Positions 312 through 10,467 of a stretch of DNA of 10,467 bases are shown piece after piece (the stretch's first letter is position 1; each line of letters opens with the position of its first letter). A program made the position numbers and the translations under genes. Source of the stretch: Escherichia coli (lineage in GTDB: Bacteria > Pseudomonadota > Gammaproteobacteria > Enterobacterales > Enterobacteriaceae); NCBI GenBank assembly GCA_025544715.1, contig GCA_025544715.1_4109.7. The stretch is one strand, 5' to 3'. The notes beneath the pieces are model-generated. The model was not told the DNA's origin. It searched no databases and worked only from the letters and a program-made list of their open reading frames with translations.

Positions 312-455
312 TTACATCTTGCGGATAATCTTAACAGTATCTTTCACCGATTTACCGTCTTGCTGGCATTGCTCGATCATCGCGTATTGTTCTGCGGTCA
401 GATCTTCGCCAGTTTTAGCCAATACTGCATCGATGAATGAATCCAGTGCGATCAT
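312..455 (-). CDS. hypothetical protein (47 aa, MIALDSFIDAVLAKTGEDLTAEQYAMIEQCQQDGKSVKDTVKIIRKM)
   Basis: Translated by hand (below ORF-track cutoff); ATG 455 preceded by AAGAGAGAAA purine tract and sigma70-like promoter at 500-527; stop TAA 312-314; hairpin 280-305 downstream. Confidence 0.5.
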   Translation of the reverse strand: MIALDSFIDAVLAKTGEDLTAEQYAMIEQCQQDGKSVKDTVKIIRKM

Positions 456-499
456 TTTGTTTCTCTCTTAGGTTAAGTTAACTACTGTTTATAAAACTT

Positions 500-527
500 A
501 TTATACAGTACTATCAAACATTGTCAA
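500..527 (-). promoter_or_regulatory. sigma70-like early promoter, no stem-loop
   Basis: minus strand TTGACA (522-527), 16 nt spacer with AGTACT, TGTATAAT (-10 at 500-505). Confidence 0.6.
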
Positions 528-554
528 TAGATTTAATAGTACTGGTAATATATT

Positions 555-734
555 TTAGCGGTAATCGTCGTATGCTTTATTAACCTGGCGAATGTAACTT
601 TCAAAGGCTTCGTCTACCGTTTCATACTCCCGAACATAATCACCATAGGAAACCACATACATCCCTTTTTGTTCTTCAAACGTCATGATGATAGAATCCA
701 GGCCGATGATTTCAGTTTTTGCGATAATAGCCAT
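555..734 (-). CDS. hypothetical protein (59 aa; track ORF 555..803 trimmed to MAIIAKTEI...)
   Basis: ATG 734 has SD AAGGAAT 9 nt upstream and lies downstream of promoter -10 (775-780)/-35 (798-803); the track's longer start at 803 is upstream of the -35 and has no SD. Confidence 0.5.
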   Translation of the reverse strand: MAIIAKTEIIGLDSIIMTFEEQKGMYVVSYGDYVREYETVDEAFESYIRQVNKAYDDYR

Positions 735-774
735 TTTAGTATTCCTTAAATTAATATGTTGTCTTGATGTAGGT

Positions 775-803
775 ATTATGCCAGTACTATCAAACGTTGT
801 CAA
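775..803 (-). promoter_or_regulatory. sigma70-like early promoter (variant cassette without GGGGAG hairpin)
   Basis: TTGACA (798-803), 17 nt, CATAAT (775-780); near-identical copy at 3918-3946. Confidence 0.55.
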
Positions 804-822
804 TAGTACTGTGATAATATTT

Positions 823-1035
823 TTAGTTAATGATAGTCAGTGTAAAATTGTAATCCCCTGCCTGGTATAGTACTTTATCGCCGAACGTGCCGACACGTTT
901 CATATTGCAATAGATACCCATAACATTTTTTACATCTTTGATATTCCGAACGCCAGTGATATCCTTGTTGAAATTTTCATGATCAGAAAATAAAACTTGT
1001 TTTGCATTTTTCAGTACAGTGCGGATATTAGCCAT
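823..1035 (-). CDS. hypothetical protein (70 aa, MANIRTV...)
   Basis: ORF track; ATG 1035 directly after cassette stem-loop 1061-1080 and purine-rich SD; stop lies in upstream tract of next promoter. Confidence 0.6.
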   Translation of the reverse strand: MANIRTVLKNAKQVLFSDHENFNKDITGVRNIKDVKNVMGIYCNMKRVGTFGDKVLYQAGDYNFTLTIIN

Positions 1036-1060
1036 TTTGTTTTCTCTCTCTTTGTTAGTA

Positions 1061-1125
1061 GGGAAGTACTAATACTTCCCGTGCCTTGATGTAAACTATT
1101 ATACAGTACTAAAAACTATTGTCAA
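1061..1125 (-). promoter_or_regulatory. promoter + 5' UTR stem-loop cassette
   Basis: TTGACA 1120-1125, 16 nt, TATAAT 1098-1103; stem-loop GGGAAGTA/TACTTCCC 1061-1080. Confidence 0.65.
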
Positions 1126-1133
1126 ACTATTTT

Positions 1134-1334
1134 TTAAATTTTTTTCCATTTCATTTGCCCGGCCGGACGCTGAGCAATAGGAATAAACATATTGCTAATA
1201 TTACTGATATAACCTACCTGGAGATCACGCTGACTACCATACGCCCGACTTGCTGCATTTTTTGCCCCGCGTTCTGAATCGTATACGCCGTTAGATACTG
1301 AAAAACCTACTACACCGAAAGTGAATTGTTTCAT
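1134..1334 (-). CDS. hypothetical protein (66 aa, MKQFTFGVVGFS...)
   Basis: ORF track; ATG 1334 after stem-loop 1356-1374 and SD; stop TAA inside TTTTTTAA tract of cassette at 1120-1140. Confidence 0.6.
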   Translation of the reverse strand: MKQFTFGVVGFSVSNGVYDSERGAKNAASRAYGSQRDLQVGYISNISNMFIPIAQRPAGQMKWKKI

Positions 1335-1355
1335 TTTATATCTCTCTTTGTTAGT

Positions 1356-1414
1356 GGGGAGAACTATTCTCCCCTTGATGTAAACTATTATACAGTACTA
1401 TAAACTATTGTCAA
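1356..1414 (-). promoter_or_regulatory. promoter + 5' UTR stem-loop cassette
   Basis: TTGACA 1409-1414, 16 nt, TATAAT 1387-1392; stem-loop GGGGAGAA/TTCTCCCC 1356-1374. Confidence 0.65.
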
Positions 1415-1428
1415 ACTATTTTTTAATA

Positions 1429-1770
1429 TTATTCAAAATCTTCTGGACCGGACTGATAATCATCTTCACCGTATGCACTTTCTAACTTCTCGCCAGTGTG
1501 ATCATCAGTTAGTGAGTCATCCTCATAGTTCACGTCTACGCCCGTGATGTAAAACTGGCTATCGTCTGGATCATTGAAATTAATTTTCTGAATGTTTACA
1601 ATAACGGTATTGATGCCCAGGACACCGCCATCAGCAGTTACAAAGTACTGATATTTTTCACAACCGCCTGAATTGAAACCGTAATTGATTTCGGCCCGAC
1701 CATCATTTAAACGCAGTGCCTGAGCGATGATTTCGTTTTCAAAGTTAGATTGAGCAATTGCAATAGTCAT
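1429..1770 (-). CDS. hypothetical protein, acidic C-terminus (113 aa; track ORF trimmed to MTIAIAQSNF...)
   Basis: ATG 1770 with SD AAGGAAA 7 nt upstream, immediately downstream of stem-loop 1790-1808 and promoter (-10 1822-1827, -35 1844-1849); the track start at 1863 lies upstream of the promoter. Confidence 0.6.
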   Translation of the reverse strand: MTIAIAQSNFENEIIAQALRLNDGRAEINYGFNSGGCEKYQYFVTADGGVLGINTVIVNIQKINFNDPDDSQFYITGVDVNYEDDSLTDDHTGEKLESAYGEDDYQSGPEDFE

Positions 1771-1789
1771 GATTCGTTTCCTTATTACC

Positions 1790-1849
1790 AGGGGAAACCG
1801 TTTCCCCTCTCGATATAAAACATTATACGCGAATTGAGATAGTATGCAA
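1790..1849 (-). promoter_or_regulatory. promoter + 5' UTR stem-loop cassette
   Basis: TTGCAT 1844-1849, 16 nt, TATAAT 1822-1827; stem-loop AGGGGAA/TTCCCCT 1790-1808. Confidence 0.6.
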
Positions 1850-1903
1850 GTACTTTTTATCAAATACTTTAAAATAGTTTTCAGTACTCAAAGATTATAC
1901 AAT

Positions 1904-1947
1904 AGATACACTCCTGCACCCTGTGGGCTAGTGAGCTATCTCTCAAT
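1904..1947 (-). ncRNA. conserved element copy 1 (candidate small RNA or 5' leader)
   Basis: minus-sense GAGATAGCTCACTAGCCCACAGGGTGCAGGAGTGTATCT behind promoter 1954-1982; alignable with plus copy 6581-6618. Confidence 0.25.
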
Positions 1948-1953
1948 GAATAT

Positions 1954-1982
1954 ATAATAGCAAAATGGCTGACCGAAGTCAA
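1954..1982 (-). promoter_or_regulatory. sigma70-like promoter driving conserved element copy 1
   Basis: minus strand TTGACT (1977-1982), 17 nt, TATTAT (1954-1959); lies directly downstream of the stop at 1992. Confidence 0.4.
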
Positions 1983-1991
1983 CCACTTTTT

Positions 1992-2129
1992 TCATTTATT
2001 TTTAGCTTTTAGAATCGCCGCCTTTCGCGTCATGCCTTGCTTGATGTACTCCTTTACTTTCGCTTTACGTGCTTTCGCTTTATCTGCTTTCGTTTTAGGA
2101 GTACTGTAAATTATACCGTTAGGATTCAT
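1992..2129 (-). CDS. small Lys/Ala-rich basic protein (45 aa, MNPNGIIYSTPKTKADKAKARKAKVKEYIKQGMTRKAAILKAKNK)
   Basis: Translated by hand; ATG 2129 immediately follows the TAA of the upstream 29-aa ORF (TAAATG); GGTGA 6 nt upstream; stop TGA 1992-1994. Confidence 0.4.
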   Translation of the reverse strand: MNPNGIIYSTPKTKADKAKARKAKVKEYIKQGMTRKAAILKAKNK

Positions 2130-2219
2130 TTAAATCACCATAAAGAATAGATAGGTTACTAACAACGCCGCGATCAATGCACCGATCACCGCCGAACTGT
2201 AATAAGCCAATGATTTCAT
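2130..2219 (-). CDS. hydrophobic 29-aa peptide, predicted single transmembrane helix (MKSLAYYSSAVIGALIAALLVTYLFFMVI)
   Basis: Translated by hand; ATG overlaps the TGA of the upstream gene in an ATGA arrangement (translational coupling); uninterrupted hydrophobic core; no own SD. Confidence 0.35.
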   Translation of the reverse strand: MKSLAYYSSAVIGALIAALLVTYLFFMVI

Positions 2220-2368
2220 TTTTTAGCCTGAAAGTAATGTTTAATTTGTGCGGCGGTCAGTGCACAATTACGCAGGAAGTTTTCTGTATAACTGCGACGA
2301 GTACTGAAAGAGAATTGACCTTTGCCGTTACCGATAGTAACATCAAACCGAGCGTTGTATTGTTTCAT
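2216..2368 (-). CDS. hypothetical protein (50 aa; track ORF trimmed to MKQYNARFDV...)
   Basis: ATG 2368 with strong SD AGGAGA, downstream of stem-loop 2387-2406 and promoter (-10 2419-2424, -35 2441-2446). Confidence 0.55.
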   Translation of the reverse strand: MKQYNARFDVTIGNGKGQFSFSTRRSYTENFLRNCALTAAQIKHYFQAKK

Positions 2369-2386
2369 TTTGTTTCTCCTGTTATT

Positions 2387-2446
2387 GGGGAGAATCATTT
2401 CTCCCCTTCATGTAAAACATTATACAGTACTAAAAACTAATTGCAA
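2387..2446 (-). promoter_or_regulatory. promoter + 5' UTR stem-loop cassette
   Basis: TTGCAA 2441-2446, 16 nt, TATAAT 2419-2424; stem-loop GGGGAGAA/TTCTCCCC 2387-2406. Confidence 0.65.
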
Positions 2447-2449
2447 GTA

Positions 2450-2596
2450 CTATTTTTTAGATTTACGCAAACTTTCTACCATCTCAGGAGTAAGGCCAGG
2501 CGGGTAGGAAACCACTTCATCAACGAAACGTAAAGGGAATACCCCAGCGAAAGGTGAACATGCTTTCTTAGTATTACTCTTTTTTGATGCTTTCAT
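2450..2596 (-). CDS. small basic protein (48 aa, MKASKKSNTKKACSPFAGVFPLRFVDEVVSYPPGLTPEMVESLRKSKK)
   Basis: Translated by hand; ATG 2596 with SD AAGGAAT ~8 nt upstream, after stem-loop 2616-2635; stop TAG 2450-2452 abuts -35 of the next cassette. Confidence 0.5.
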   Translation of the reverse strand: MKASKKSNTKKACSPFAGVFPLRFVDEVVSYPPGLTPEMVESLRKSKK

Positions 2597-2615
2597 TTCA
2601 TATTCCTTAATTAGT

Positions 2616-2675
2616 GGGGAGAATCATTTCTCCCCTTCATGTAAAACATTATACAGTACTGAAAACTAATTGCAA
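2616..2675 (-). promoter_or_regulatory. promoter + 5' UTR stem-loop cassette
   Basis: TTGCAA 2670-2675, 16 nt, TATAAT 2648-2653; stem-loop 2616-2635, identical in sequence to the one at 2387-2406. Confidence 0.65.
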
Positions 2676-2875
2676 GTACTTTCTGAAAGTAAATGCTCAT
2701 AAGCTGCATTGACTACATTTTCAATAACCGACTGTACAGGAAGATCCCCCACGTCCTGGCTATAGTAGAAATCGCTTACAGTGGTGTTATCGTATGCAAA
2801 TACTTTACCAGGTACGGCATCAATCACATACATATTAACCTTTAAGATGTCGATTTTATCCTGTACAGTAAGCAT
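2666..2875 (-). CDS. hypothetical protein (69 aa)
   Basis: ORF track; ATG 2875 is 5 nt after the stop of 2881..3138 (operon partner); last codons and stop read through the spacer and -35 of cassette 2616-2675. Confidence 0.55.
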   Translation of the reverse strand: MLTVQDKIDILKVNMYVIDAVPGKVFAYDNTTVSDFYYSQDVGDLPVQSVIENVVNAAYEHLLSESTCN

Positions 2876-2880
2876 ATTAA

Positions 2881-3138
2881 TTAACCTTTTAAGTACTGGC
2901 TTAAGTAGTCTTGTTGATCTTCGGTGGTTGCCGCCATCTTCCCTAGTACTGGATTGATGATATAATCCTGATCCGCCTTATCAGTACTAGCAACCGGACG
3001 GATACGGGCCATTTCCTGGGCTTGTTCCACACTGTAACGCTCATAAAGGCGGCATTCTTCCGGTGTTAGCATTGCATCAATACGTTTCATTGGTTTAATG
3101 ATGCTTTCAACTTCATTGAGTACTTGATTAACGTTCAT
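2881..3138 (-). CDS. hypothetical protein (85 aa)
   Basis: ORF track; GGGGA SD 8 nt upstream of ATG 3138; no own cassette promoter, likely co-transcribed with 3190..3459; contains four AGTACT sites in three frames. Confidence 0.6.
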   Translation of the reverse strand: MNVNQVLNEVESIIKPMKRIDAMLTPEECRLYERYSVEQAQEMARIRPVASTDKADQDYIINPVLGKMAATTEDQQDYLSQYLKG

Positions 3139-3189
3139 GGTATAATCCCCAATATAAGCGGCCTAAATCAACCGCTAACGATGTTTTGA

Positions 3190-3459
3190 TTAATAGGTGT
3201 AGGGTTGACGCTCAAACAATGATTGCACGTTGTACGCCCCGCTAATGGGCTTCGCTGTCAAATCAATTTTATATTGTTCACGCTTAAAGATAATAAAACG
3301 ACAATTGTTCTTAACATCAAAATTGATTGAACGTTCCAGGAGTTTACCATCGTGCACAAATACAAGATAACCGCTCGCTACTTGTTTTGTAGTACTGGTT
3401 GCAACCATAGACCGACGAACATGTGTACCTGCATCGATTAAAGTACTGATATTTTTCAT
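3190..3459 (-). CDS. hypothetical protein (89 aa)
   Basis: ORF track; strong SD AAGAGGA 9 nt upstream of ATG 3459; preceded by a distinct stem-loop (3498-3526). Confidence 0.6.
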   Translation of the reverse strand: MKNISTLIDAGTHVRRSMVATSTTKQVASGYLVFVHDGKLLERSINFDVKNNCRFIIFKREQYKIDLTAKPISGAYNVQSLFERQPYTY

Positions 3460-3497
3460 TATACTATCCTCTTAAGTTAGTTTAATTTCTTTCCCCT

Positions 3498-3534
3498 ATG
3501 CAGACACTATATCAAAGTATCTGCATAAAGTAAA
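3498..3534 (-). promoter_or_regulatory. possible weak promoter plus distinct 5' stem-loop for operon 3459->2666
   Basis: minus strand TTTACT (3529-3534), 17 nt, TATAGT (3506-3511); inverted repeat ATGCAGA/TCTGCAT 3498-3526; not the cassette type. Confidence 0.3.
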
Positions 3535-3539
3535 GCTAA

Positions 3540-3884
3540 TTAAAGATCTTTTTTGCGTTTAACATCAGTTACCGAACTGTAAACAGTGATATTATTGTCA
3601 CGGCAAAAACGTGAAAGGTATGATCCGCGTGTAAACTCCTTCCCTTCCATATCAATAACCTTGCTAAATTCTTCCATTGCTACGGTGTCAAAGTGATCCC
3701 CATAACCATATTGGAACGGCACGTTTACCACTTCAATAAAATTACCATCGATTTCAACGTCTACACTTAAAGAAAAATAAGTGTTACCATATGAAGCCTG
3801 GAACCAACGCCGAGCGGCAATATGTACAACTTCAACAGAAGACAGGTTGATATTTTGTGCAGCGATGGTGTTGATGTTAGCCAT
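3540..3884 (-). CDS. hypothetical protein (114 aa, MANINTIAAQ...)
   Basis: ORF track; SD AAGAGGAAA; hairpin-less cassette promoter 3918-3946. Confidence 0.65.
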   Translation of the reverse strand: MANINTIAAQNINLSSVEVVHIAARRWFQASYGNTYFSLSVDVEIDGNFIEVVNVPFQYGYGDHFDTVAMEEFSKVIDMEGKEFTRGSYLSRFCRDNNITVYSSVTDVKRKKDL

Positions 3885-3917
3885 TTTTGTTTCCTCTTAG
3901 TTGTCTTGATAAAATCT

Positions 3918-3946
3918 ATTATGCCAGTACTATCAAACTATGTCAA
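3918..3946 (-). promoter_or_regulatory. sigma70-like early promoter (variant cassette without GGGGAG hairpin)
   Basis: TTGACA 3941-3946, 17 nt, CATAAT 3918-3923; near-identical to 775-803. Confidence 0.6.
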
Positions 3947-3965
3947 TAGTACTGTGATAATAATT

Positions 3966-4109
3966 TTACTTACTTTTTGCTTTCTTTACAGCTTCCACCT
4001 GGTCGGCCCACTCTTTACCCCATACTTGAGCGTTATAGTGATACTGACAAAGAGCAACGCCCCGTTTCAAACCAGTAATAGATTTTTTACCACATTGACA
4101 AGTTTTCAT
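3966..4109 (-). CDS. small Cys/His-containing protein, possible zinc-binding (47 aa, MKTCQCGKKSITGLKRGVALCQYHYNAQVWGKEWADQVEAVKKAKSK)
   Basis: Translated by hand; ATG 4109 with SD AAGAGGAAA after stem-loop 4128-4147; C-x-C ... C-x2-H spacing. Confidence 0.5.
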   Translation of the reverse strand: MKTCQCGKKSITGLKRGVALCQYHYNAQVWGKEWADQVEAVKKAKSK

Positions 4110-4127
4110 TTTTAGTTTCCTCTTAGT

Positions 4128-4187
4128 GGGGAGAACCATTTCTCCCCTTGATGTAATGTATTATACTTTATCTGACTTACTTTGCAA
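4128..4187 (-). promoter_or_regulatory. promoter + 5' UTR stem-loop cassette
   Basis: TTGCAA 4182-4187, 16 nt, TATAAT 4160-4165; stem-loop GGGGAGAA/TTCTCCCC 4128-4147. Confidence 0.65.
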
Positions 4188-4194
4188 GTACTTT

Positions 4195-4422
4195 TTAGTT
4201 TAATTCATCCAGGCATAAGATACGATCTACGCCGAGATCCGTTAAGCTAATGGTTGGCACTTGATAGGTTTCAATGTATTCTACACTAGCCCACTGACCG
4301 AACTCATTCACCGCCCAGGTATTCATTGCAAAATGTAATTCCGCACCTTTCTTATTAGTAATTACAGCAACAGTAGAAGAAGTGCCAGTAGTACCAGTTA
4401 CATAAGCGATTACGATAGCCAT
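4195..4422 (-). CDS. hypothetical protein (75 aa)
   Basis: ORF track; SD AGGAAT; promoter -10 4456-4461, -35 4479-4484. Confidence 0.6.
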   Translation of the reverse strand: MAIVIAYVTGTTGTSSTVAVITNKKGAELHFAMNTWAVNEFGQWASVEYIETYQVPTISLTDLGVDRILCLDELN

Positions 4423-4455
4423 TGTTTTGATTCCTATTCAGTAGTTGATGTATGT

Positions 4456-4484
4456 ATTATGTCAGTACTTAAAACTATTGTCAA
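4456..4484 (-). promoter_or_regulatory. sigma70-like early promoter, no stem-loop
   Basis: TTGACA 4479-4484, 17 nt, CATAAT 4456-4461. Confidence 0.55.
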
Positions 4485-4492
4485 ACTATTTT

Positions 4493-4645
4493 TTAAAGTT
4501 TATCAATGATTGATGCCGTTTCATTGATAGTCTTGCCGTGTTTTGCACACGCAATAACTGCTTTAAATTCCTTTGATGACCAATCTTTCTTGCTGCATAC
4601 TGACATTACTTGTAACGTGAAACAATCCAGTTCATAAGTATTCAT
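4493..4645 (-). CDS. hypothetical protein (50 aa, MNTYELDCFTLQVMSVCSKKDWSSKEFKAVIACAKHGKTINETASIIDKL)
   Basis: Translated by hand; ATG 4645 with SD GAGGA 8 nt upstream; cassette 4666-4718; stop TAA inside TTTTTTAAA tract of next cassette. Confidence 0.5.
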   Translation of the reverse strand: MNTYELDCFTLQVMSVCSKKDWSSKEFKAVIACAKHGKTINETASIIDKL

Positions 4646-4665
4646 CTTTATATCCTCAGTTAGTT

Positions 4666-4718
4666 AAGGTGTTTCGCCTTGATGTAATTAATTATACGCT
4701 AATCTCTTAATCGTGCAA
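4666..4718 (-). promoter_or_regulatory. promoter + weak 5' stem-loop
   Basis: TTGCAC 4713-4718, 16 nt, TATAAT 4691-4696; short hairpin AAGGTG/CGCCTT 4666-4680. Confidence 0.55.
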
Positions 4719-4825
4719 GTACTTTTTATTAGTTTTTATAAAATACTTTCTACGCCCTCAATCGCATTCTAACGACCATAACGCCACCAGCTAGGGCGAT
4801 GTATCAGATAATCAGTTTAATGCGT

Positions 4826-4839
4826 TAGAATCGATTCTA
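4826..4839. repeat. 14-bp perfect palindrome TAGAATCGATTCTA in a non-coding spacer
   Basis: self-complementary; overlaps an inverted copy of the TTCTAACG motif. Confidence 0.8.
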
Positions 4840-4871
4840 GGCGGTGCTAGTGGACTGGAATACTATAGACA

Positions 4872-4899
4872 CAAAAAAGCCCACTGTTTATAGTGGGCT
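4872..4899 (-). terminator. Rho-independent terminator
   Basis: minus strand AGCCCACT-ATAAAC-AGTGGGCT followed by UUUUUUGU; preceded by AGTACTGAATCA. Confidence 0.7.
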
Positions 4900-4920
4900 A
4901 GTGATTCAGTACTTTAATTG

Positions 4921-5403
4921 TTATGCTTCAACTTTGCGATGAGATTCGATCCATTCCTCACGGGTCAATCCGCTTTCTTTGATAGCATCCAGTACTACCG
5001 CGATGCAATTACCGCGTACTGGTACAGTGTATTCCTCGCCATTATCCAGAACTACAGTAACACGTTCTTGAATCCATTTTTTAGGTTTAGATTCTGGCTT
5101 ATCTTCACCATACTTAACCGCCAGGGCTTTATGTGCCATTTCGACAACTACTTCCAGATCCAATCCAGACACCGCCGCCTGGATACTTTCAATTGTTGCT
5201 TGCAGTTCTGCTTCACGGGCTTTTTTCTGTTCTTCCAGTTCTGCTACCTTTTTGGCTTGCAGTTCTTTCGCTTCGCTGTACGCAATGTTAAAATTGTTGC
5301 GTACTGCTTTCATGGTATCGTTATCCAGGTCAGCCAGCAATTCAGCAGCAATAACAGTATCGTTTGAAATCAGTGCTTTCAGGAATGATTTTACATTAGC
5401 CAT
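4921..5403 (-). CDS. hypothetical protein with central Glu/Lys/Ala-rich predicted coiled-coil (160 aa; start moved to MANVKSF...)
   Basis: The track start at 5418 is a TTG codon; ATG 5403 has SD GAGGA 9 nt upstream; promoter -10 TAGAAT 5527-5532, -35 5549-5554; intrinsic terminator downstream (4872-4899). Confidence 0.65.
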   Translation of the reverse strand: MANVKSFLKALISNDTVIAAELLADLDNDTMKAVRNNFNIAYSEAKELQAKKVAELEEQKKAREAELQATIESIQAAVSGLDLEVVVEMAHKALAVKYGEDKPESKPKKWIQERVTVVLDNGEEYTVPVRGNCIAVVLDAIKESGLTREEWIESHRKVEA

Positions 5404-5526
5404 TTTATAAATCCTCAATTAAAGTTTAGTTTACGTTAGTTAGTGTATCAAAGTTTTATTGACGTGTCCAGTTTTTCATTCGACTTACTGGCGGTCTACT
5501 TAGTGTTCCCCGTCTTGATGTAATAC

Positions 5527-5554
5527 ATTCTACGCCTTTTTGTGGTAATGTCAA
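5527..5554 (-). promoter_or_regulatory. sigma70-like promoter with long (~115 nt) leader
   Basis: TTGACA 5549-5554, 16 nt, TAGAAT 5527-5532; ATG at 5403. Confidence 0.5.
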
Positions 5555-5608
5555 CTACTTTTTTAAAACTATTTTCAAAGTATTCTAGTACTACAATCCT
5601 ACAATAAC

Positions 5609-5635
5609 AAAAAAGCCCACTGCTTATAGTGGGCT
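5609..5635 (-). terminator. Rho-independent terminator (near-identical copy of the 4872-4899 module)
   Basis: AGCCCACT-ATAAGC-AGTGGGCT followed by UUUUUUGUUAUUG; preceded by AGTACTGAATCA. Confidence 0.7.
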
Positions 5636-5652
5636 AGTGATTCAGTACTAGA

Positions 5653-5952
5653 TTATAAACAGTTAATTACTCCTGTATGCGTTACTTTCTCCGTATCCAT
5701 GACAGTGACAGAACCACGTTTAGCACTGGCATCATAATAAATTGTTGTGCTACCTTTATCATCTTCTTCATGGAACGGGCCGTTTTTAAATGCTTCCGGC
5801 TGCAATTCCAGATCCTTTAAAACAATCTCGCCTGTACTTTCATTGGTCATTGCTACTGTGCACTGAATGAATTTATCACTACTCACATCTAACGATGCGT
5901 TAACAGCGAAAGAGGAAACAGATAAAGCCAGGGCGATGATTGCAATTTTCAT
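5653..5952 (-). CDS. predicted secreted/periplasmic protein with N-terminal signal peptide (99 aa, MKIAIIALALSVSSFAVNA|S...)
   Basis: ORF track; hydrophobic N-terminus with AxA-like cleavage motif; its promoter cassette lies across the N gap at 6127-6186; terminator 5609-5635 downstream. Confidence 0.6.
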   Translation of the reverse strand: MKIAIIALALSVSSFAVNASLDVSSDKFIQCTVAMTNESTGEIVLKDLELQPEAFKNGPFHEEDDKGSTTIYYDASAKRGSVTVMDTEKVTHTGVINCL

Positions 5953-6110
5953 TTGNNNNNNNNNNNNNNNNNNNNNNNNNNNNNNNNNNNNNNNNNNNNN
6001 NNNNNNNNNNNNNNNNNNNNNNNNNNNNNNNNNNNNNNNNNNNNNNNNNNNNNGTTAACAGCGAAAGAGGAAACAGATAAAGCCAGGGCGATGATTGCAA
6101 TTTTCATTTG
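5899..6110. repeat. exact 57-bp direct duplication flanking the N gap (5899-5955 = 6054-6110)
   Basis: identical strings GTTAACAGCGAAAGAGGAAACAGATAAAGCCAGGGCGATGATTGCAATTTTCATTTG on both sides; most likely overlapping contig ends, so the true sequence probably joins 5955 to 6111. Confidence 0.8.
5956..6053. other. 98-nt run of N (assembly or scaffold gap)
   Basis: unbroken N run; both flanks are an identical 57-bp sequence. Confidence 0.95.
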
Positions 6111-6126
6111 ATTATCCTTAGTTACC

Positions 6127-6186
6127 AGGGGGAACCTCTCCCCCTTGCGATGTAAAATATTATACAGTACTAAAAACTATTATCAA
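6127..6186 (-). promoter_or_regulatory. promoter + 5' UTR stem-loop cassette (serves the gene across the N gap)
   Basis: TTGATA 6181-6186, 16 nt, TATAAT 6159-6164; stem-loop AGGGGGA/TCCCCCT 6127-6145. Confidence 0.6.
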
Positions 6187-6191
6187 GTACT

Positions 6192-6428
6192 TTATGATTT
6201 TTTATAAAACATTTCAGCAGTGATATTTTTACCCGTTGGCTGTACTTTATCCAGAATTTTTTGATGCCCTGGAAGTCCAAATGAATATGATCCGTAAACC
6301 GTAAACCAGTAGTTACCCTCAGTGTTTACATGTACAGCACAATAGGGAACGCCCCGCGATTCATCACCAATAAAGTGTGATACCGTTCCCGTTACATTAG
6401 CAGACGTTGATTTGATTTGTTCAAGCAT
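6192..6428 (-). CDS. hypothetical protein (78 aa)
   Basis: ORF track; SD AAGGAAT; cassette with stem-loop 6449-6467, -10 6477-6482, -35 6499-6504. Confidence 0.6.
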   Translation of the reverse strand: MLEQIKSTSANVTGTVSHFIGDESRGVPYCAVHVNTEGNYWFTVYGSYSFGLPGHQKILDKVQPTGKNITAEMFYKKS

Positions 6429-6448
6429 TTTCTTATTCCTTAGTTACC

Positions 6449-6504
6449 AGGGGGAACCGCTCCCCCTATGCAAAACATTATACGCGTTTAAAAACTAATA
6501 GCAA
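6449..6504 (-). promoter_or_regulatory. promoter + 5' UTR stem-loop cassette
   Basis: TTGCTA 6499-6504, 16 nt, TATAAT 6477-6482; stem-loop AGGGGGA/TCCCCCT 6449-6467. Confidence 0.6.
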
Positions 6505-6537
6505 GTATTTTAATAAAAAGTATTTGAAAAATAATTG

Positions 6538-6566
6538 TTGACAACTGCATCCAGTACTGGCATAAT
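6538..6566 (+). promoter_or_regulatory. plus-strand sigma70-like promoter, divergent from the 6449-6504 cassette
   Basis: TTGACA 6538-6543, 17 nt spacer containing AGTACT, CATAAT 6561-6566; no plus-strand ORF downstream. Confidence 0.5.
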
Positions 6567-6572
6567 TACTAC

Positions 6573-6680
6573 ATAAAGACGAGATAGTCACTAACCCACC
6601 GGGTGCATAGATCCGTCTATTAAATGATTCAGTACTGAAAAAGTAACGGGGAGTTATTATCTCCCCGCGTTGTTATTTGG
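6573..6680 (+). ncRNA. candidate small non-coding RNA (~105 nt) of the conserved-element family
   Basis: own promoter 6538-6566, conserved element 6581-6618, palindrome TTCAGTACTGAA 6628-6639, terminator hairpin 6647-6667 with U tract; longest ATG ORF is 4 codons. Confidence 0.35.
6647..6680. terminator. bidirectional intrinsic terminator
   Basis: CGGGGAG-TTATTAT-CTCCCCG hairpin; U-rich on the plus side (GUUGUUAUUU) and on the minus side (UUACUUUUUC); ends both the plus small transcript and minus gene 6673..6894. Confidence 0.6.
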
Positions 6681-6894
6681 TAAGGTATAAACAGAAGTCA
6701 CCTTTATTTGCTACGCCGCCAGTGTAACGCGATGAATAGTTAGAAACGTCCTGGACTTCTGCTATTACCAGTGTATCATCATTCAATTCGTCGCAGAAGC
6801 AAACGGCTGGATCTTTTACGCCGATCTTGTCGGCATGTTCCCGCATAGATTTAACCAGTGCTTCCAGTTGAGAAAGAGTAGTGATATTAGCCAT
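6673..6894 (-). CDS. hypothetical protein (73 aa; track ORF trimmed to MANITTLSQ...)
   Basis: ATG 6894 with SD GAGGAAA downstream of stem-loop 6914-6931; the track start at 6924 lies inside the stem-loop; bidirectional terminator 6647-6667 just after the stop. Confidence 0.6.
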   Translation of the reverse strand: MANITTLSQLEALVKSMREHADKIGVKDPAVCFCDELNDDTLVIAEVQDVSNYSSRYTGGVANKGDFCLYLTK

Positions 6895-6913
6895 TGTATT
6901 TTCCTCATTACCA

Positions 6914-6972
6914 GGGAGAACCATTTCTCCCCTCTATGTAAACTATTATACAGTACTGGAAACTAATTGCAA
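6914..6972 (-). promoter_or_regulatory. promoter + 5' UTR stem-loop cassette
   Basis: TTGCAA 6967-6972, 16 nt, TATAAT 6945-6950; stem-loop GGGAGAA/TTCTCCC 6914-6931. Confidence 0.65.
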
Positions 6973-6980
6973 GTACTTTT

Positions 6981-7184
6981 TTAATTTAATTGCTTTAAAA
7001 CATACTCAAAGACACCACGCACATCATTGATCATCGCCTGGCGGTTAGCAGGTAACGCACCAAGATCGCCACTATCCCAGGCATTGATAAAACTCCCCAA
7101 ATCATGATAGATTTTATTCTGTAAGCCGATCAACTGTAATTCTTTTTCTTCAAGCTCTTTAATACGGTCGATTAAAAGACTCAT
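6981..7184 (-). CDS. hypothetical protein (67 aa; trimmed to MSLLIDRIKELEE...)
   Basis: ATG 7184 with SD GAGGA; 17 nt after the stop of 7202..7489; shares a 20-nt RBS/start module with that gene. Confidence 0.5.
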   Translation of the reverse strand: MSLLIDRIKELEEKELQLIGLQNKIYHDLGSFINAWDSGDLGALPANRQAMINDVRGVFEYVLKQLN

Positions 7185-7201
7185 TAGATAATCCTCAGTA
7201 C

Positions 7202-7489
7202 TTAATTGTAAGATCCGCAACGGTTACAATAGTGCCCGTCTTCCTCGTCATCGTCAACGAATTGACTAACGAAATTATCTACTTTCTCTTTGAGATTCTG
7301 ATAATTGTTTTCTACTTCCTTTAAACGTTCCTGGTAGTATTCCAGTGCTTGCACATACGCCGCCTCAGCCGTTTTAGCTCTTAAGGCTAAATTCATGCCA
7401 CGCGTTTCATCGTACATCCAAAAGCCATCGGTGCACTCACTGATTGACAATGATTTGGTTAACACTTTATAGTCAATTACTTTGCTCAT
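7202..7489 (-). CDS. hypothetical protein with C-terminal C-x2-C (95 aa; trimmed to MSKVIDYK...)
   Basis: ATG 7489 with SD GAGGA 9 nt upstream; the track start at 7528 lies inside the hairpin 7508-7526; no own promoter, likely co-transcribed with 7546..7785. Confidence 0.55.
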   Translation of the reverse strand: MSKVIDYKVLTKSLSISECTDGFWMYDETRGMNLALRAKTAEAAYVQALEYYQERLKEVENNYQNLKEKVDNFVSQFVDDDEEDGHYCNRCGSYN

Positions 7490-7507
7490 TAGATAATCCT
7501 CAGTAAA

Positions 7508-7526
7508 GGCGGGAACCACACCCGCC
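7508..7526 (-). terminator. intercistronic GC hairpin (attenuator or processing site?)
   Basis: GGCGGG-AACCACA-CCCGCC between stop at 7546 and ATG at 7489; followed by UUUACU on the minus strand; preceded by the 14-bp palindrome 7531-7544. Confidence 0.3.
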
Positions 7527-7530
7527 ATTG

Positions 7531-7544
7531 ATTCAGTACTGAAT
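7531..7544. repeat. 14-bp perfect palindrome ATTCAGTACTGAAT
   Basis: self-complementary; related copies TGATTCAGTACT at 4902-4913, 5638-5649, 6625-6636 and in reverse at 10171-10185. Confidence 0.8.
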
Positions 7545-7545
7545 G

Positions 7546-7785
7546 TTACATTCCAACCATTGCAGCACGGATCGCCGTAGTGCTATACTTGAATCCGTCC
7601 GGCGTTGTAGTAGTACCGTTGGCTTTTAATCTGCGGTACATACATTGGGCCGCAATATCTTTAGTTTTACATTGTGCGATGCAACTTTGAGCAAGCCGAT
7701 ATAATGACTCACCGTTATTAATCCACAATGAAACATTCCAATGAGTTTTGTTTTTGTGCCCGTTGTAAGTTTTAGTACTAGCCAT
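7546..7785 (-). CDS. hypothetical protein, paralog of 9143..9382 (79 aa)
   Basis: ORF track; SD GAGGA; cassette 7808-7869; shares GHKNKTHWNVSLWINN and an identical C-terminal 19 aa with 9143..9382. Confidence 0.65.
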   Translation of the reverse strand: MASTKTYNGHKNKTHWNVSLWINNGESLYRLAQSCIAQCKTKDIAAQCMYRRLKANGTTTTPDGFKYSTTAIRAAMVGM

Positions 7786-7807
7786 TTTTAAATCCTCGTT
7801 TGATTGA

Positions 7808-7869
7808 GCAGGGGAACCATTCCCCCGCCTCGATATAAAGTATTATACGCCGTTAAACTTAGTTTGCAA
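7808..7869 (-). promoter_or_regulatory. promoter + 5' UTR stem-loop cassette
   Basis: TTGCAA 7864-7869, 16 nt, TATAAT 7842-7847; stem-loop 7808-7828. Confidence 0.65.
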
Positions 7870-7882
7870 GTACTTTTTTAAA

Positions 7883-8494
7883 TTAATATTCGATTGATTC
7901 TACTACGCCATCAATCACATTGAATTGATATTCGTTACCCTCGATCAGTGCTACGATGTTTTCAGTAGTGAATTGATCCTCATATGCATTCTCTAAATCA
8001 CGGTACAACTTGCGTGACAATTCACGAATAGTATCAGTGAGTAGTTCCTCAAGCTCATTAACTAACGTTTCTTGTTTTGCGGTTAAATCAGTGTAAGCCG
8101 ATTCAATGTACCCGCTTACAGTATTCTCATGCGAGTAGCGAGAGTGAGAACGCTTTACACTCATTGCCAAATCATCTTCATTCAGCAGGTGACGGATTGA
8201 GCGATACTTAGTTAACGCCTTAACCTTGCGTAAAAACTTCACTGCGTCAACGTGGTCAGTACTGATTGATGCACCGTCACCTTGCGACCAAAAACCACTG
8301 AATTGCAATTCCGCGTCAGTAATACCATACTCCGGCAACAATGTTTCTTTATAGTATTCATATACGCCCTCAGAAAAGAAATCATCACCGCTTGAACGTT
8401 CCCGATCCCGAACCAGTTCGATAGCTGACGTTTGTTGTTCTGCGTTCAATTCAGAAAAAGCCATAACATAAGTAGTAGTAGTGATAGTTTTCAT
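7883..8494 (-). CDS. hypothetical acidic protein (203 aa), largest ORF in the window
   Basis: ORF track; SD GAGGG 9 nt upstream of ATG 8494; promoter -10 8527-8532, -35 8549-8554, with a second complete cassette further upstream. Confidence 0.7.
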   Translation of the reverse strand: MKTITTTTYVMAFSELNAEQQTSAIELVRDRERSSGDDFFSEGVYEYYKETLLPEYGITDAELQFSGFWSQGDGASISTDHVDAVKFLRKVKALTKYRSIRHLLNEDDLAMSVKRSHSRYSHENTVSGYIESAYTDLTAKQETLVNELEELLTDTIRELSRKLYRDLENAYEDQFTTENIVALIEGNEYQFNVIDGVVESIEY

Positions 8495-8526
8495 TTTGTA
8501 ACCCTCATTCAGTAGTTGATGTAAGT

Positions 8527-8554
8527 ATTATACGCTTTTAAAAACAATTGTCAA
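8527..8554 (-). promoter_or_regulatory. sigma70-like early promoter, no stem-loop
   Basis: TTGACA 8549-8554, 16 nt, TATAAT 8527-8532. Confidence 0.55.
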
Positions 8555-8603
8555 ACTATTTTATCAGGGGAGTTTTTCGTAAGTCTTACTCCTGGACTAC
8601 TTA

Positions 8604-8671
8604 ACGGGGAGTTACTTATTCATTCCCCGTCCTGATGTAAAACATTATACGCCTTTAAACATAGTTTGCAA
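8604..8671 (-). promoter_or_regulatory. orphan promoter + stem-loop cassette with no ORF of its own (tandem with 8527-8554)
   Basis: TTGCAA 8666-8671, 16 nt, TATAAT 8644-8649; stem-loop ACGGGGA/TCCCCGT 8604-8630; the next ATG-initiated ORF is only 5 codons. Confidence 0.5.
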
Positions 8672-8708
8672 GTACTTTTTAAAAAATAGTTTTAATCACT
8701 TTTATATA

Positions 8709-8752
8709 GATACACTCCCGCACCCTATGGGCTATCGCCTTGTGTCCGGCTT
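8709..8752 (-). ncRNA. conserved element copy 4 (candidate small RNA or 5' leader)
   Basis: minus-sense ..GATAGCCCATAGGGTGCGGGAGTGTATCT behind promoter 8759-8787. Confidence 0.25.
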
Positions 8753-8758
8753 GTAAGT

Positions 8759-8787
8759 ATTATCTCACTAAGCCGGATAATGGTCAA
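8759..8787 (-). promoter_or_regulatory. sigma70-like promoter driving conserved element copy 4
   Basis: minus strand TTGACC (8782-8787), 17 nt, GATAAT (8759-8764). Confidence 0.35.
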
Positions 8788-8793
8788 GTACTT

Positions 8794-9060
8794 TTATTCA
8801 AGTACTGCAATCTTTTTAGTACTGTACACAGTAACACGGTTGCCCTTGCGGTCGTGCTTTATTTCTACCACGCGACGCGATACACTATCAGGACGCTTTA
8901 AAGCAGATAGCCAGTACTGAATAGATCGGGCTGTACTTCTCTTTACTACGGCCCAACGTTTACCACGTTCCGATTGTACGCCCATATCTTTAAACGTCGC
9001 CCCGTCCTGGCGTGCTGCAATCCGAGCAAGTTCACGCGTAGCAAAGTAAGTAATATTCAT
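8794..9060 (-). CDS. hypothetical basic protein (88 aa; trimmed to MNITYFATRELARIAARQ...)
   Basis: ATG 9060 with GGGG SD-like 9 nt upstream; the track start at 9114 lies upstream of the -10 (9097-9102). Confidence 0.5.
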   Translation of the reverse strand: MNITYFATRELARIAARQDGATFKDMGVQSERGKRWAVVKRSTARSIQYWLSALKRPDSVSRRVVEIKHDRKGNRVTVYSTKKIAVLE

Positions 9061-9096
9061 GCTGATACCCCTATCGTTGTTGTATAAAAGAAATCT

Positions 9097-9121
9097 ATTA
9101 TAAAGTACTATCACCGTGCAA
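9097..9121 (-). promoter_or_regulatory. degenerate cassette promoter (spacer only 13 nt)
   Basis: TATAAT 9097-9102 and TTGCAC 9116-9121 are too close for a canonical sigma70 promoter; looks like a cassette with ~3 nt deleted from the spacer. Confidence 0.25.
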
Positions 9122-9142
9122 TAGTACTTTTAATCTATTCTC

Positions 9143-9382
9143 TTACATTCCAACCATTGCAGCACGGATCGCCGTAGTACTATACTTGAATCCGTCCGGT
9201 GTTTTATCTTGTCCAGTCTGTTCTAAAAATAGCATCATATGACGGGCCGCATCATTGCGATTAGTGTTAGCGGCAATAAAGTCCAGGGCCAACCGATATA
9301 ATGATTCATCATTATTAATCCAAAGGCTTACATTCCAATGAGTTTTATTTTTGTGACCTAAGAACATTTTTGATTTAGCCAT
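9143..9382 (-). CDS. hypothetical protein, paralog of 7546..7785 (79 aa)
   Basis: ORF track; SD GAGGA 9 nt upstream of ATG 9382; cassette 9406-9462; near-identical nucleotide sequence to 7546..7785 at both ends. Confidence 0.65.
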   Translation of the reverse strand: MAKSKMFLGHKNKTHWNVSLWINNDESLYRLALDFIAANTNRNDAARHMMLFLEQTGQDKTPDGFKYSTTAIRAAMVGM

Positions 9383-9405
9383 TTTAAAATCCTCTGAATT
9401 ATGGC

Positions 9406-9462
9406 GGGGAACTATTCCCCACCTGATAGAAAGTATTATACATTAATCGAATTACTTTGCAA
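9406..9462 (-). promoter_or_regulatory. promoter + 5' UTR stem-loop cassette
   Basis: TTGCAA 9457-9462, 16 nt, TATAAT 9435-9440; stem-loop GGGGAA/TTCCCC 9406-9420. Confidence 0.65.
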
Positions 9463-9465
9463 GTA

Positions 9466-9657
9466 CTATTTTTTGCAATATTCGTAAATCTCTTTATATC
9501 CGCTTAGTACTACATCGCCCCGCTGCAATGTGATAGATTCGAAATCATCATGATTAACAGCGTTTAACCAGTTTAAAGCCTTCATCTTATTTGGGTATTT
9601 TTGTTCGTGCTGGTTTTCCCCATCAATCAACCAGTACTGTATAATTATCTCACGCAT
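9466..9657 (-). CDS. hypothetical protein (63 aa)
   Basis: ORF track; AAGGG SD; 11 nt after the stop of 9669..10031 (operon partner); stop TAG just upstream of the next cassette -35. Confidence 0.55.
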   Translation of the reverse strand: MREIIIQYWLIDGENQHEQKYPNKMKALNWLNAVNHDDFESITLQRGDVVLSGYKEIYEYCKK

Positions 9658-9668
9658 ACATATTACCC

Positions 9669-10031
9669 TTATTCGTAAATCTTGCCACTGTCAGCCCATA
9701 CCAGGAAACGCGGCATATTATCCCATGCATCTTGTTTCAAGTTTAAACCGTGTAATACTTCGGTACTTTCCATTCCTGGTACTGGTTTACTATACACCGC
9801 AAACATTTCGCCCATGTACTGATAAGCCATCGTTAAATCACTGGCGATCATCTTATGGATCATCGCATCAAGCATCACAGTAGCGGCGTATTGTTCACGC
9901 TTAAGCGGTAACATTTTAATAAGTTCCCGATAAGCTGAAATATGAATTTTTACAGTCTCAGCGGGGAGATCTTTCATCTCTTCACGAAAGTTAACCAGGT
10001 TAGCAATGATTTTAGTGATTTGAGTCGCCAT
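9669..10031 (-). CDS. hypothetical protein (120 aa)
   Basis: ORF track; ATG 10031 downstream of imperfect stem-loop 10052-10076 and promoter (-10 TAGAAT 10087-10092, -35 TTGCAA 10109-10114). Confidence 0.65.
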   Translation of the reverse strand: MATQITKIIANLVNFREEMKDLPAETVKIHISAYRELIKMLPLKREQYAATVMLDAMIHKMIASDLTMAYQYMGEMFAVYSKPVPGMESTEVLHGLNLKQDAWDNMPRFLVWADSGKIYE

Positions 10032-10051
10032 CGTTTTAATCTCTTAAAAGT

Positions 10052-10114
10052 GAGTCGGGAGCGTATCCCCCGTCTCGATGTAAAACATTCTACACCTTTC
10101 CCAATACGTTGCAA
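10052..10114 (-). promoter_or_regulatory. promoter + imperfect 5' stem-loop
   Basis: TTGCAA 10109-10114, 16 nt, TAGAAT 10087-10092; imperfect hairpin 10052-10076. Confidence 0.55.
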
Positions 10115-10348
10115 GTACTTTCTACAAATACTTTTAAAATAGTTTTCTTTCTATATAGGAGTACTATCATCCAGTACTGAATCAATCAAGGGAGTACAAT
10201 TATTCAGTACTATACCGTAAAACGGCCTCAGTCGCTTTCTAACGCATTAATACACCTAAGCTATACATTTGCACCACTCCCAACAATCCAGGGCGTTACA
10301 GGCCGTTTAAACGCGTTAAATTATTTTCAATTATTTTGTTTTTAGCTA

Positions 10349-10376
10349 TTGACTCAGTACAGAAAAAGCGTATAAT
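10349..10376 (+). promoter_or_regulatory. plus-strand sigma70-like promoter driving conserved element copy 3
   Basis: TTGACT 10349-10354, 16 nt, TATAAT 10371-10376; transcript start ATTACTACATAGACG.. matches that of the 6538-6566 promoter. Confidence 0.5.
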
Positions 10377-10382
10377 TACTAC

Positions 10383-10428: not shown

Positions 10429-10467
10429 AAAATTCATAAAATTTAAAAAGGATACACTCCCGCACCT

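Follow-up and report, generated by a model that had tools for sequence, protein, structure and literature searches.

Promoter and stem-loop cassettes between the early genes of an Asteriusvirus jumbo coliphage and their probable role in the exchange of gene modules

The window analyzed here (the whole stretch of 10,467 nt, contig GCA_025544715.1_4109.7 of assembly GCA_025544715.1, deposited as Escherichia coli) represents an early region of an Asteriusvirus (121Q/PBECO4-like jumbo coliphage); it is rich in ORFans, and its small genes are separated by repeated intergenic cassettes. These are probably early regulatory cassettes of the promoter-early stem-loop (PeSL) type, which combine a promoter, a stem-loop, a Shine-Dalgarno (SD) sequence and an ATG, and whose homologous recombination shuffles open reading frame (ORF) modules. 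This reading draws on cassette anatomy, overlaps with gene ends, the distribution of breakpoints, insertions and deletions (indels) in register with the cassettes, and the recurrence of window ORFs next to other cassettes, all of which were observed directly. A megablast search of the window against 50,697 phage records returned 188 matches, with the Asteriusvirus jumbo coliphages CRJP21, TH47, fEgEco12, 121Q, PBECO4, and G17 at the top. No record covered more than 78% of the window; identity was ~91% and the match was split into up to 18 pieces. The best relative matched in 15 pieces (78% window coverage, 91% identity), so the region differs between close relatives. In several relatives it lies at the genome end, within or adjoining a direct terminal repeat. 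The credible genes of the window are all on the minus strand and all small (45-203 amino acids, aa).

Cassettes were defined by repeat finding, a promoter regular expression, and alignment, which gave about 20 minus-strand copies (Table 1); the repeat families found in the window had 11-13 copies of 61-95 nt each. The cassettes are ~100 nt long, lie on one strand, and are spaced 230-900 nt apart. Read in the direction of transcription, they consist of a T-AAAAA(A) tract (the A-tract is present in 18/20), GTAC-TTGCAA or TAG-TTTGACA, a spacer of 16-17 nt with AGTACTG at its end in many copies, TATAAT with (G)TTTTACATCAAG after it, a G-rich/C-rich hairpin, ACTAA or TGGTAA, AGGA, and AAAATG. The conserved block that follows the sigma-70 -10 box and precedes the G/C hairpin, SD, and ATG is TACATCAAG. 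The sigma-70 consensus TTGACA-16-TATAAT is matched at 12/12 positions in four cassettes and at 9-11/12 in the others, and an SD of the form AGGA/GAGG stands 5-10 nt before the ATG of cassette-led genes. Hairpins of -11 to -16.5 kcal/mol, starting ~13 nt after the -10 box, were found in 14/20 window cassettes and are lacking in 6/20. When cassettes from 14 further loci (12 Asteriusvirus relatives, a second stretch of JP4, and Escherichia phage W70) were added to those of the window, 200 of 286 instances had a hairpin, and these comprised 69 distinct stems in which pairing is kept despite changes on both arms. Given that spacer and flanks are conserved far beyond promoter needs, common descent of the copies or gene conversion between them is indicated.

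Breakpoints were determined from chained BLASTN matches in twelve syntenic loci of related genomes and, with the N-gap excluded, formed 58 clusters. Cassettes, which make up 17.7% of the length, held 25/58 clusters (p = 6e-6), and coding sequence, which makes up 67.7%, held 19/58 (p = 5e-8), most of them within 25 nt of a gene end. A preliminary description of this DNA had suggested that genes are exchanged by recombination within cassette sequence, and had named breakpoints in coding bodies as the outcome that would speak against it; the enrichment in cassettes, the depletion in coding sequence, and five exact gene-plus-cassette indels support the suggestion. In each of these five indels, the unit gained or lost is exactly one ORF plus one cassette, and, in alignments over 45-100 nt, the one cassette that the shorter genome has at the site matches both cassettes that flank the unit in the longer genome.

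Three-way alignment placed the crossover of the 1134..1334 indel between hairpin and SD, in ACTAACAAAGAGAG, and that of the 2450..2596 indel only to somewhere between the -35 box and the hairpin; those crossovers that could be narrowed down lie between the -10 box or hairpin and the SD. At the site of 6192..6428, the cassette remaining in TH47 and 121Q is a mosaic of the two flanking window cassettes. The cassette with its boxes at 6945-6972 is joined in different genomes to five unrelated upstream ORFs, each ending at the A-tract edge, three of which have (A/T)TT(A/T)AATTAA in common. Of all cassette pairs in the window, the three most similar include the two that became polymorphic most recently (86%). 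The polymorphic modules of 229, 289, and 318 nt are concrete candidates for mini-circle formation and cassette recombination.

The same ORFs also occur in other cassette contexts. JP4 and 121Q have homologues of 1134..1334 (83-86% aa identity) at a distance of 3.4-3.8 kb, which in 121Q is 3.4 kb as measured from the syntenic site, and the JP4 homologue, the only one whose flanks were read, is again found between promoter cassettes. W70, an unrelated and smaller phage of the Vequintavirinae with a genome of 137 kb, carries at least seven window ORFs (75-92% nucleotide identity), which are arranged in another order and separated by the same type of promoter/hairpin cassette; on sequence grounds, this sharing points to exchange of ORF modules between families of E. 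coli phages. The cassette is present in multiple copies throughout the RaK2-like jumbo phages; a single 94-nt cassette used as query matched up to 28 places per genome, with matches in those members of the group that infect Klebsiella, Salmonella, Erwinia, Serratia, and Yersinia.

An alternative account, which we consider unlikely, is that the cassettes are no more than strong early promoters and translation signals packed into a compact genome, that recombination is untargeted, and that breakpoints reflect selection against disrupted genes. Since random deletion plus selection would not give equivalent cassette positions at both ends, the five in-register indels, with their 45-100 nt of common junction sequence, oppose this account, as does the high similarity of the two most recently polymorphic cassette pairs; moreover, the same mechanism has been demonstrated experimentally for PeSLs (PMC2839356). 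In favor of packing, some junctions fall at microhomology or coding ends, and the properties of stops and starts given below are also those that packing would produce.

Recombination between PeSL-type cassettes, which we prefer, has several observations weighing against it. The window-specific insertion 9442..9668 is bounded by an 11-12-nt direct repeat, (A)GATTTACGAATA, and its junctions, in the next cassette's -10 box and in the last codons of 9669..10031, are of the microhomology kind. In SHEFM2K, 6981..7184 was lost across an 8-nt AAGTACT microhomology. Gene 3540..3884 has undergone replacement by divergent alleles, with junctions 25 nt and 7 nt inside the gene. Adjacent cassettes were not more similar overall than non-adjacent ones (p = 0.26), so that local gene conversion making neighbors more alike was not significant. 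A T tract (at least five T in the next 8 nt) follows only 3/200 cassette hairpins, ACTAA or TGGTAA being found there instead, which rules out canonical (rho-independent) terminators; the terminator role claimed for PeSLs is not evident in these cassettes. Finally, there is survivorship: only indels that preserve genes are visible, so that selection for intact genes must add to the breakpoint pattern, and enrichment at boundaries alone is therefore no proof of cassette homology as the mechanism.

PeSLs were defined in phi1 and RB49 as repeats that open with the stop codon of the upstream gene in an AT-rich region, contain sigma-70 boxes and a polyG/polyC stem-loop, end in an SD and start codon, and cluster in hyperplastic regions that are rich in ORFans (Arbiol et al. 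2010, PMC2839356). Recombination between PeSLs inserts, deletes, and replaces ORFs, with crossovers mapped between the -10 box and the ATG (PMC2839356, Fig. 2 legend), and PeSLs were subsequently extended to other T4-like phages (Comeau et al. 2014, PMC4122927). The cassettes of the window share with the PeSLs of RB49/phi1, T4/PST, and KVP40/nt-1 the form of a repeated intergenic element of ~100 nt, the upstream stop in an AT-rich tract, the sigma-70 -35/-10 boxes, the polyG..polyC stem-loop, and the SD and ATG at the 3' end, as well as the setting in ORFan-rich hyperplastic regions and the ORF-plus-element indels between close relatives with crossovers from -10 to ATG. All features that define PeSLs at the sequence level are present. 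PeSLs are further characterized by strong promoter activity, by terminator or attenuator activity of the stem-loop, and by ORF mini-circles that arise when flanking elements recombine.

The cassettes differ from PeSLs in several points. The carrier is an Asteriusvirus, a RaK2-like jumbo phage of ~350 kb, and not a T4-like phage as in those studies; the hairpin is almost always downstream of the -10 box, in the 5' untranslated region (UTR), whereas in phi1 it mostly lies between the boxes or over the -10 box; six of the 20 cassettes lack a hairpin; and there are extra conserved blocks (GTAC before -35, AGTACTG before -10, and TACATCAAG after -10). In sequence, the cassettes fit the PeSL model of Arbiol 2010 and Comeau 2014, but occur in another lineage of phages, which would extend PeSL-mediated modular shuffling from T4-like phages to the RaK2/121Q jumbo phage group. 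In the CBB paper, RpoD-like promoters that have UP-like elements, 18 in all, were described upstream of short early ORFs (PMC5259590), and no prior report of PeSL-like cassettes or of an AGTACT excess in Asteriusvirus or RaK2-like phages was found in the literature searched.

Promoter activity, hairpin function, and the recombination pathway are those that we infer as follows. Each unit would act as a strong host sigma-70 promoter, whose AAAAAA(G/T)(T/A) tract just before the -35 box fits a proximal UP-element subsite; a G-rich/C-rich hairpin in the 5' UTR and a ribosome-binding region rich in A come after the promoter. With small early ORFs arranged head to tail, the AT-rich UP-like tract of a promoter would overlap the last codons of the preceding ORF, and the T-AAAAAA junction, the cassette TAG, and TGA/TAG/TAA in the -35 box, spacer, and -10 box would terminate any incoming ORF. 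AAAATG-GCT-A.. and AAAATG-AAA starts would provide an E. coli high-expression start context. General homologous recombination between cassettes would then insert, delete, and replace ORF-plus-cassette modules.

The stops of at least nine genes had been described as lying inside the upstream tract of the next cassette, and ten genes were found to end within 14 nt of a -35 box or inside the promoter. In 13/20 cassettes, the stop of the upstream gene lies within 27 nt of the -35 box, with gaps of 3, 13, 8, 5, 8, 7, 19, -10, 3, 14, 8, 19, and 27 nt. At 1134, 4493, 6981, 4195, and 6192, the gene ends on a TAA that belongs to the cassette and lies where the A-tract begins on its 5' side; at 9466 and 2450, it ends on the cassette TAG in AAATAGTAC. 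Among the examples originally listed, the string CTATTTTTTAA is present at 1134 and 4493 only, with GTACTTTTT(T)A instead at 4195 and 6981; at 7883 the stop is a TAA that precedes the A-tract by 3 nt.

Gene 2666..2875 ends, as had been noted, in the promoter spacer, with its last codons encoded by the cassette. Its end reads AGT ACT TGC AAT TAG (..STCN*) and overlaps the -35 box; because the TAG directly follows TTGCAA, the last four codons (AGT ACT TGC AAT) are the GTAC-TTGCAA block. Eight orthologues (identified by BLAST) and 121Q (by eye) end in ..TCN* at the same spacer TAG, and in one further orthologue the frame runs through the entire spacer and closes at a TAG immediately ahead of the -10 box. 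Conservation of cassette-encoded C-termini, which had been proposed as a check, was seen for the ..TCN* of this family. An orthologue that meets a different following cassette has a changed tail (e.g., ..KQLN* to ..KVLDTKQ*), an observation in favor of gene exchange at cassettes.

All seven cassettes without an adjacent upstream ORF also have TA(A/G) at about -10; six of them have TAA, at -8 to -11, and one has TAG, at -10. The element therefore belongs to the cassette. It is the junction of the T-rich and A-rich tracts. The UP-element consensus attributed to Estrem et al. in 1998 reportedly has a similar T-rich/A-rich junction, with the A-tract said to lie at about -41 to -46 after a T-rich tract. 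The cassettes resemble such UP-element sigma-70 promoters, and T4 early promoters, in this upstream arrangement, in their near-consensus hexamers, and in the 16-17-nt spacer; they differ in that spacer and flanks are conserved far beyond promoter function.

Stop triplets occur at 4.7 per 50 nt in cassettes versus 4.5 +/- 1.4 in shuffles, and 10/20 cassettes have every reading frame closed versus 46% of shuffles, which rules out selection for stops within cassettes. Nor does the upstream ORF keep a fixed reading-frame phase relative to the cassette TAA (gaps mod 3 split 3/4/6). Both results are as expected from packing alone. The last five codons are 78% AT in abutting genes, 66% in other gene tails (p = 0.006), and 58% in internal windows (p = 7e-6), and the tails are therefore rich in K, N, L, and I. 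Because stop density and frame closure do not exceed base composition and the AT-rich tract overlaps gene ends, the embedded stops, although real, are best read as a by-product of the promoter-upstream tract. The C-terminal residues of many early ORFans are dual-coded with the upstream tract of the next promoter, which bears on annotation and on the interpretation of "conserved" tails.

Gene starts were similarly repetitive. ATGGCTAA(T/C) opens four genes (823..1035, 3540..3884, 6673..6894, and 4921..5403); 9/29 genes begin with MA (p = 2e-4), using GCT in 8/9 compared with 30% GCT among internal Ala codons (p = 4e-4), and codon 2 is AAA in 8/29 (p = 2e-4). MA starts were found in 9/19 cassette-led genes versus 0/10 others (p = 0.009) and, when counted by family in eight annotated sequences (the window and seven relatives), in 10/34 versus 3/31 (p = 0.045). 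The MAN(I) and MA starts singled out in the preliminary description are thus real and, in the window, confined to cassette-led genes; their proposed cause, cassette homology that reaches into the ORF, was not supported. Nor is there support for the reading that the cassette supplies ATGGCTAAT, as N-termini stay with their genes and the localizable crossovers are upstream of the SD. Codons 2-4 were likewise ruled out as part of the exchangeable cassette, given that their divergence between orthologues was 12.0% compared with 9.8% for the rest of the protein, and that MANI/MANV is invariant within families.

Among second codons, GCU shows the strongest over-representation in E. coli genes of high expression, and AAA is the one that promotes expression most (PMC1397820). 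Because MA is found only in cassette-led genes, codons 2-4 are not more variable, and GCT/AAA match this preference, the shared start is probably better explained as an optimized translation-initiation context accompanying strong early promoters than by cassette homology. The second-codon bias and the inheritance of N-termini with their genes also fit the packing account, and embedded stops and shared MA/MK starts are by themselves no sign of recombination.

The most unusual thing in the window is an excess of the palindrome AGTACT, with 61 sites (e.g., 1105, 2446, 2655, 6972, 8801, and 10173) versus 2.84 +/- 1.67 in dinucleotide shuffles (~20-fold). Cassettes carry it just upstream of the -35 box and just upstream of the -10 box, and 22/61 sites are inside coding bodies. 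Each of the 12 Asteriusvirus early-region loci has ~6 sites per kb, cassette-free stretches included; the corresponding densities are 1.55 per kb for 40 kb of the 121Q core and 1.0 per kb for the locus from the Vequintavirinae. As it is equally dense in cassette-free and coding parts, the palindrome is not cassette-specific.

Such a signal raises the alternative of a dedicated site-specific system, in which cassettes, AGTACT palindromes, or GGGG..CCCC hairpins would be sites for a phage recombinase, nuclease, or DNA-binding protein in the manner of integron attC. We regard this as very improbable. The excess itself, the two fixed positions per cassette, one deletion junction exactly on AAGTACT, and the hairpin-binding protein on which the PeSL authors speculated (PMC2839356) are in its favor. 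Breakpoints are also slightly enriched within 4 nt of AGTACT (10/57 versus 8.1%, p = 0.016), but this association is weak and confounded by cassette location, and AGTACT was rejected as a breakpoint site. Further against such a system, crossovers are spread over the cassette with no single site, the palindrome is as dense in coding sequence and the cassette-free early region, and none of the 28 window proteins scanned against Pfam has an integrase, recombinase, homing endonuclease, or nuclease domain. We consider it quite unlikely, as well, that cassettes and AGTACT form one lineage-specific RaK2-like signal system, with the palindrome read by a phage factor such as an early-promoter regulator, an early-mRNA endoribonuclease with a role like that of T4 RegB, or a recombination-promoting protein; if this were so, the factor would time early expression and help to move ORF modules, including from Asteriusvirus to Vequintavirinae.

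Two other modular systems invite comparison with the PeSL-type cassettes. Integron gene cassettes (attC/IntI) likewise form arrays of single, promoter-proximal ORF modules with structured repeats between them, exchanged as units and possibly via circles. Here, however, neither a tyrosine-recombinase integrase with attC-type sites nor any other integrase was found among the 28 window proteins, crossovers are dispersed, each module has its own promoter, and the repeat is that promoter rather than a recombination site. The morons of lambdoid phages (Hendrix/Juhala; PMC2839356) are also single accessory genes with their own promoter between resident genes; they lack conserved flanks and are thought to arise by illegitimate recombination (PMC2839356), whereas the modules described here have repeated, conserved cassette flanks and in-register junctions.

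Table 1. Cassettes, polymorphic modules, and a window-specific insertion, with positions in the window
Feature	Position	Strand	-35 box	-10 box	Hairpin	Gene led or contained	Remarks
Cassette	10032..10128	-	TTGCAA 10109-10114	TAGAAT 10087-10092	10056-10072	9669..10031 (MATQ)	
Cassette	9383..9476	-	9457-9462	9435-9440	yes	9143..9382 (MAKS)	TAG 9466-9468 is stop of orphan gene 9466..9657
Cassette	8600..8685	-	8666-8671	8644-8649	long loop		no ORF of its own; next cassette directly after
Cassette	8495..8568	-	TTGACA-16-TATAAT 8527-8554		none	7883..8494 (MKTI)	boxes given as one span
Cassette	7786..7883	-	7864-7869	7842-7847	yes	7546..7785 (MAST)	stop of 7883..8494 is 13 nt upstream of -35
Cassette	6895..6986	-	6967-6972	6945-6950	yes	6673..6894 (MANITT)	A-tract TAA 6981-6983 is stop of 6981..7184
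Cassette	6429..6518	-	6499-6504	6477-6482	yes	6192..6428	
Cassette	6108..6200	-	TTGATA 6181-6186	6159-6164	yes	MKIA gene	TAA 6192-6194 is stop of 6192..6428
Cassette	5404..5568	-	5549-5554	TAGAAT 5527-5532		4921..5403 (MANV)	long leader
Cassette	4646..4732	-	TTGCAC 4713-4718	4691-4696	weak	4493..4645	
Cassette	4423..4498	-	TTGACA 4479-4484	CATAAT 4456-4461	none	4195..4422 (MAIV)	A-tract TAA 4493-4495 is stop of 4493..4645
Cassette	4110..4201	-	4182-4187	4160-4165	yes	3966..4109 (MKTC)	TAA 4195-4197 is stop of 4195..4422
Cassette	3885..3960	-	TTGACA 3941-3946	CATAAT 3918-3923	none	3540..3884 (MANINT)	
Cassette	2597..2689	-	2670-2675	2648-2653	yes	2450..2596	gene 2666..2875 crosses -35 and ends at spacer TAG 2666-2668
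Cassette	2369..2460	-	2441-2446	2419-2424	yes	2216..2368 (MKQY)	TAG 2450-2452 is stop of 2450..2596
Cassette	1771..1863	-	TTGCAT 1844-1849	1822-1827	yes	1429..1770	
Cassette	1335..1428	-	TTGACA 1409-1414	TATAAT 1387-1392	yes	1134..1334	B of polymorphic pair; stop of 1429..1770 is 14 nt upstream; cassette TAA two codons later in same frame
Cassette	1036..1139	-	TTGACA 1120-1125	TATAAT 1098-1103	distinct	823..1035 (MANIRT)	A of polymorphic pair; A-tract TAA 1134-1136 is stop of 1134..1334
Cassette	735..817	-	TTGACA 798-803	CATAAT 775-780	none	555..734 (MAII)	
Cassette	456..541	-	TTGACA 522-527	TATAAT 500-505	none	312..455	
Module	1136..1342	-				1134..1334	with one cassette copy; 289-nt period; missing in all 11 relatives covering the site; overlap 83-100 nt
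Module	2457..2610	-				2450..2596	with cassette; 229-nt period; missing in CRJP21, TH47, 121Q; overlap 69-74 nt
Module	6195..6467	-				6192..6428	with cassette; 318-nt period; missing in TH47, 121Q; overlap 45-85 nt
Extra-gene modules in WPEC5 and Turkey5							window overlaps 69 and 80 nt
Module	4436..4677	-				4493..4645	with leader and TTGACA promoter; missing in 7 relatives; both junctions between -10 and SD
Insertion	9442..9668	-				9466..9657 (orphan)	window-specific; with new promoter half

The orphan gene of the insertion (9466-9657, minus strand) is a 63-aa ORF with a plausible SD, whose last codons (..EYCKK*) consist of the repeat and the cassette A-tract, and it had no homologue among the 50,697 phage records. 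DUF7249 was the sole Pfam family above threshold in the 28 window proteins, and was found in two 79-aa paralogues (7546-7785 and 9143-9382, minus strand) 1.6 kb apart, each with its own cassette before it. The two are 95% identical over the 64 nt at the 3' end and share the same C-terminus (..AAMVGM*). No tRNAs or Rfam RNA families were found in the window, where one Trp-leader match was sub-threshold (E = 0.19).

A run of 98 N (5956-6053) lies between exact 57-nt duplicates (5899-5955 = 6054-6110). The duplicate is single copy in every relative, where the matches overlap by 56 nt, and run and duplicate together are an artefact of a scaffold gap, by which the MKIA gene is split (5653..5952 / 6107). 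Two near-identical canonical terminators on the minus strand (4878-4899 and 5614-5635) read AGCCCACTATAA(A/G)CAGTGGGCT followed by TTTTTTG and are inside a 60-nt repeat (4854-4913 and 5590-5649); the terminator at 5614-5635 is the site of an extra 231-nt gene in six relatives.

On the plus strand, sigma-70-like promoters were found at 6538-6566 (TTGACA-17-CATAAT) and 10349-10376 (TTGACT-16-TATAAT), and a common ~55-nt segment follows both (regions 6538-6682 and 10349-10467). The sequence 6572-6682 folds at -30.7 kcal/mol (z = -3.0), ends with a hairpin (6647-6667) and T-rich tail, and has no Rfam match; we regard it as a candidate for a small RNA on the plus strand, in convergent orientation to gene 6673..6894. 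The motif GATACACTCC(C/T)GCACCCT(A/G)TGGGCTA occurs at 1908-1935, 8712-8740, and 10452-10467, in three gene-free gaps (1860-1990, 8690-8790, and 10140-10467), and each copy is preceded by AAAATAGTTTT-type sequence.

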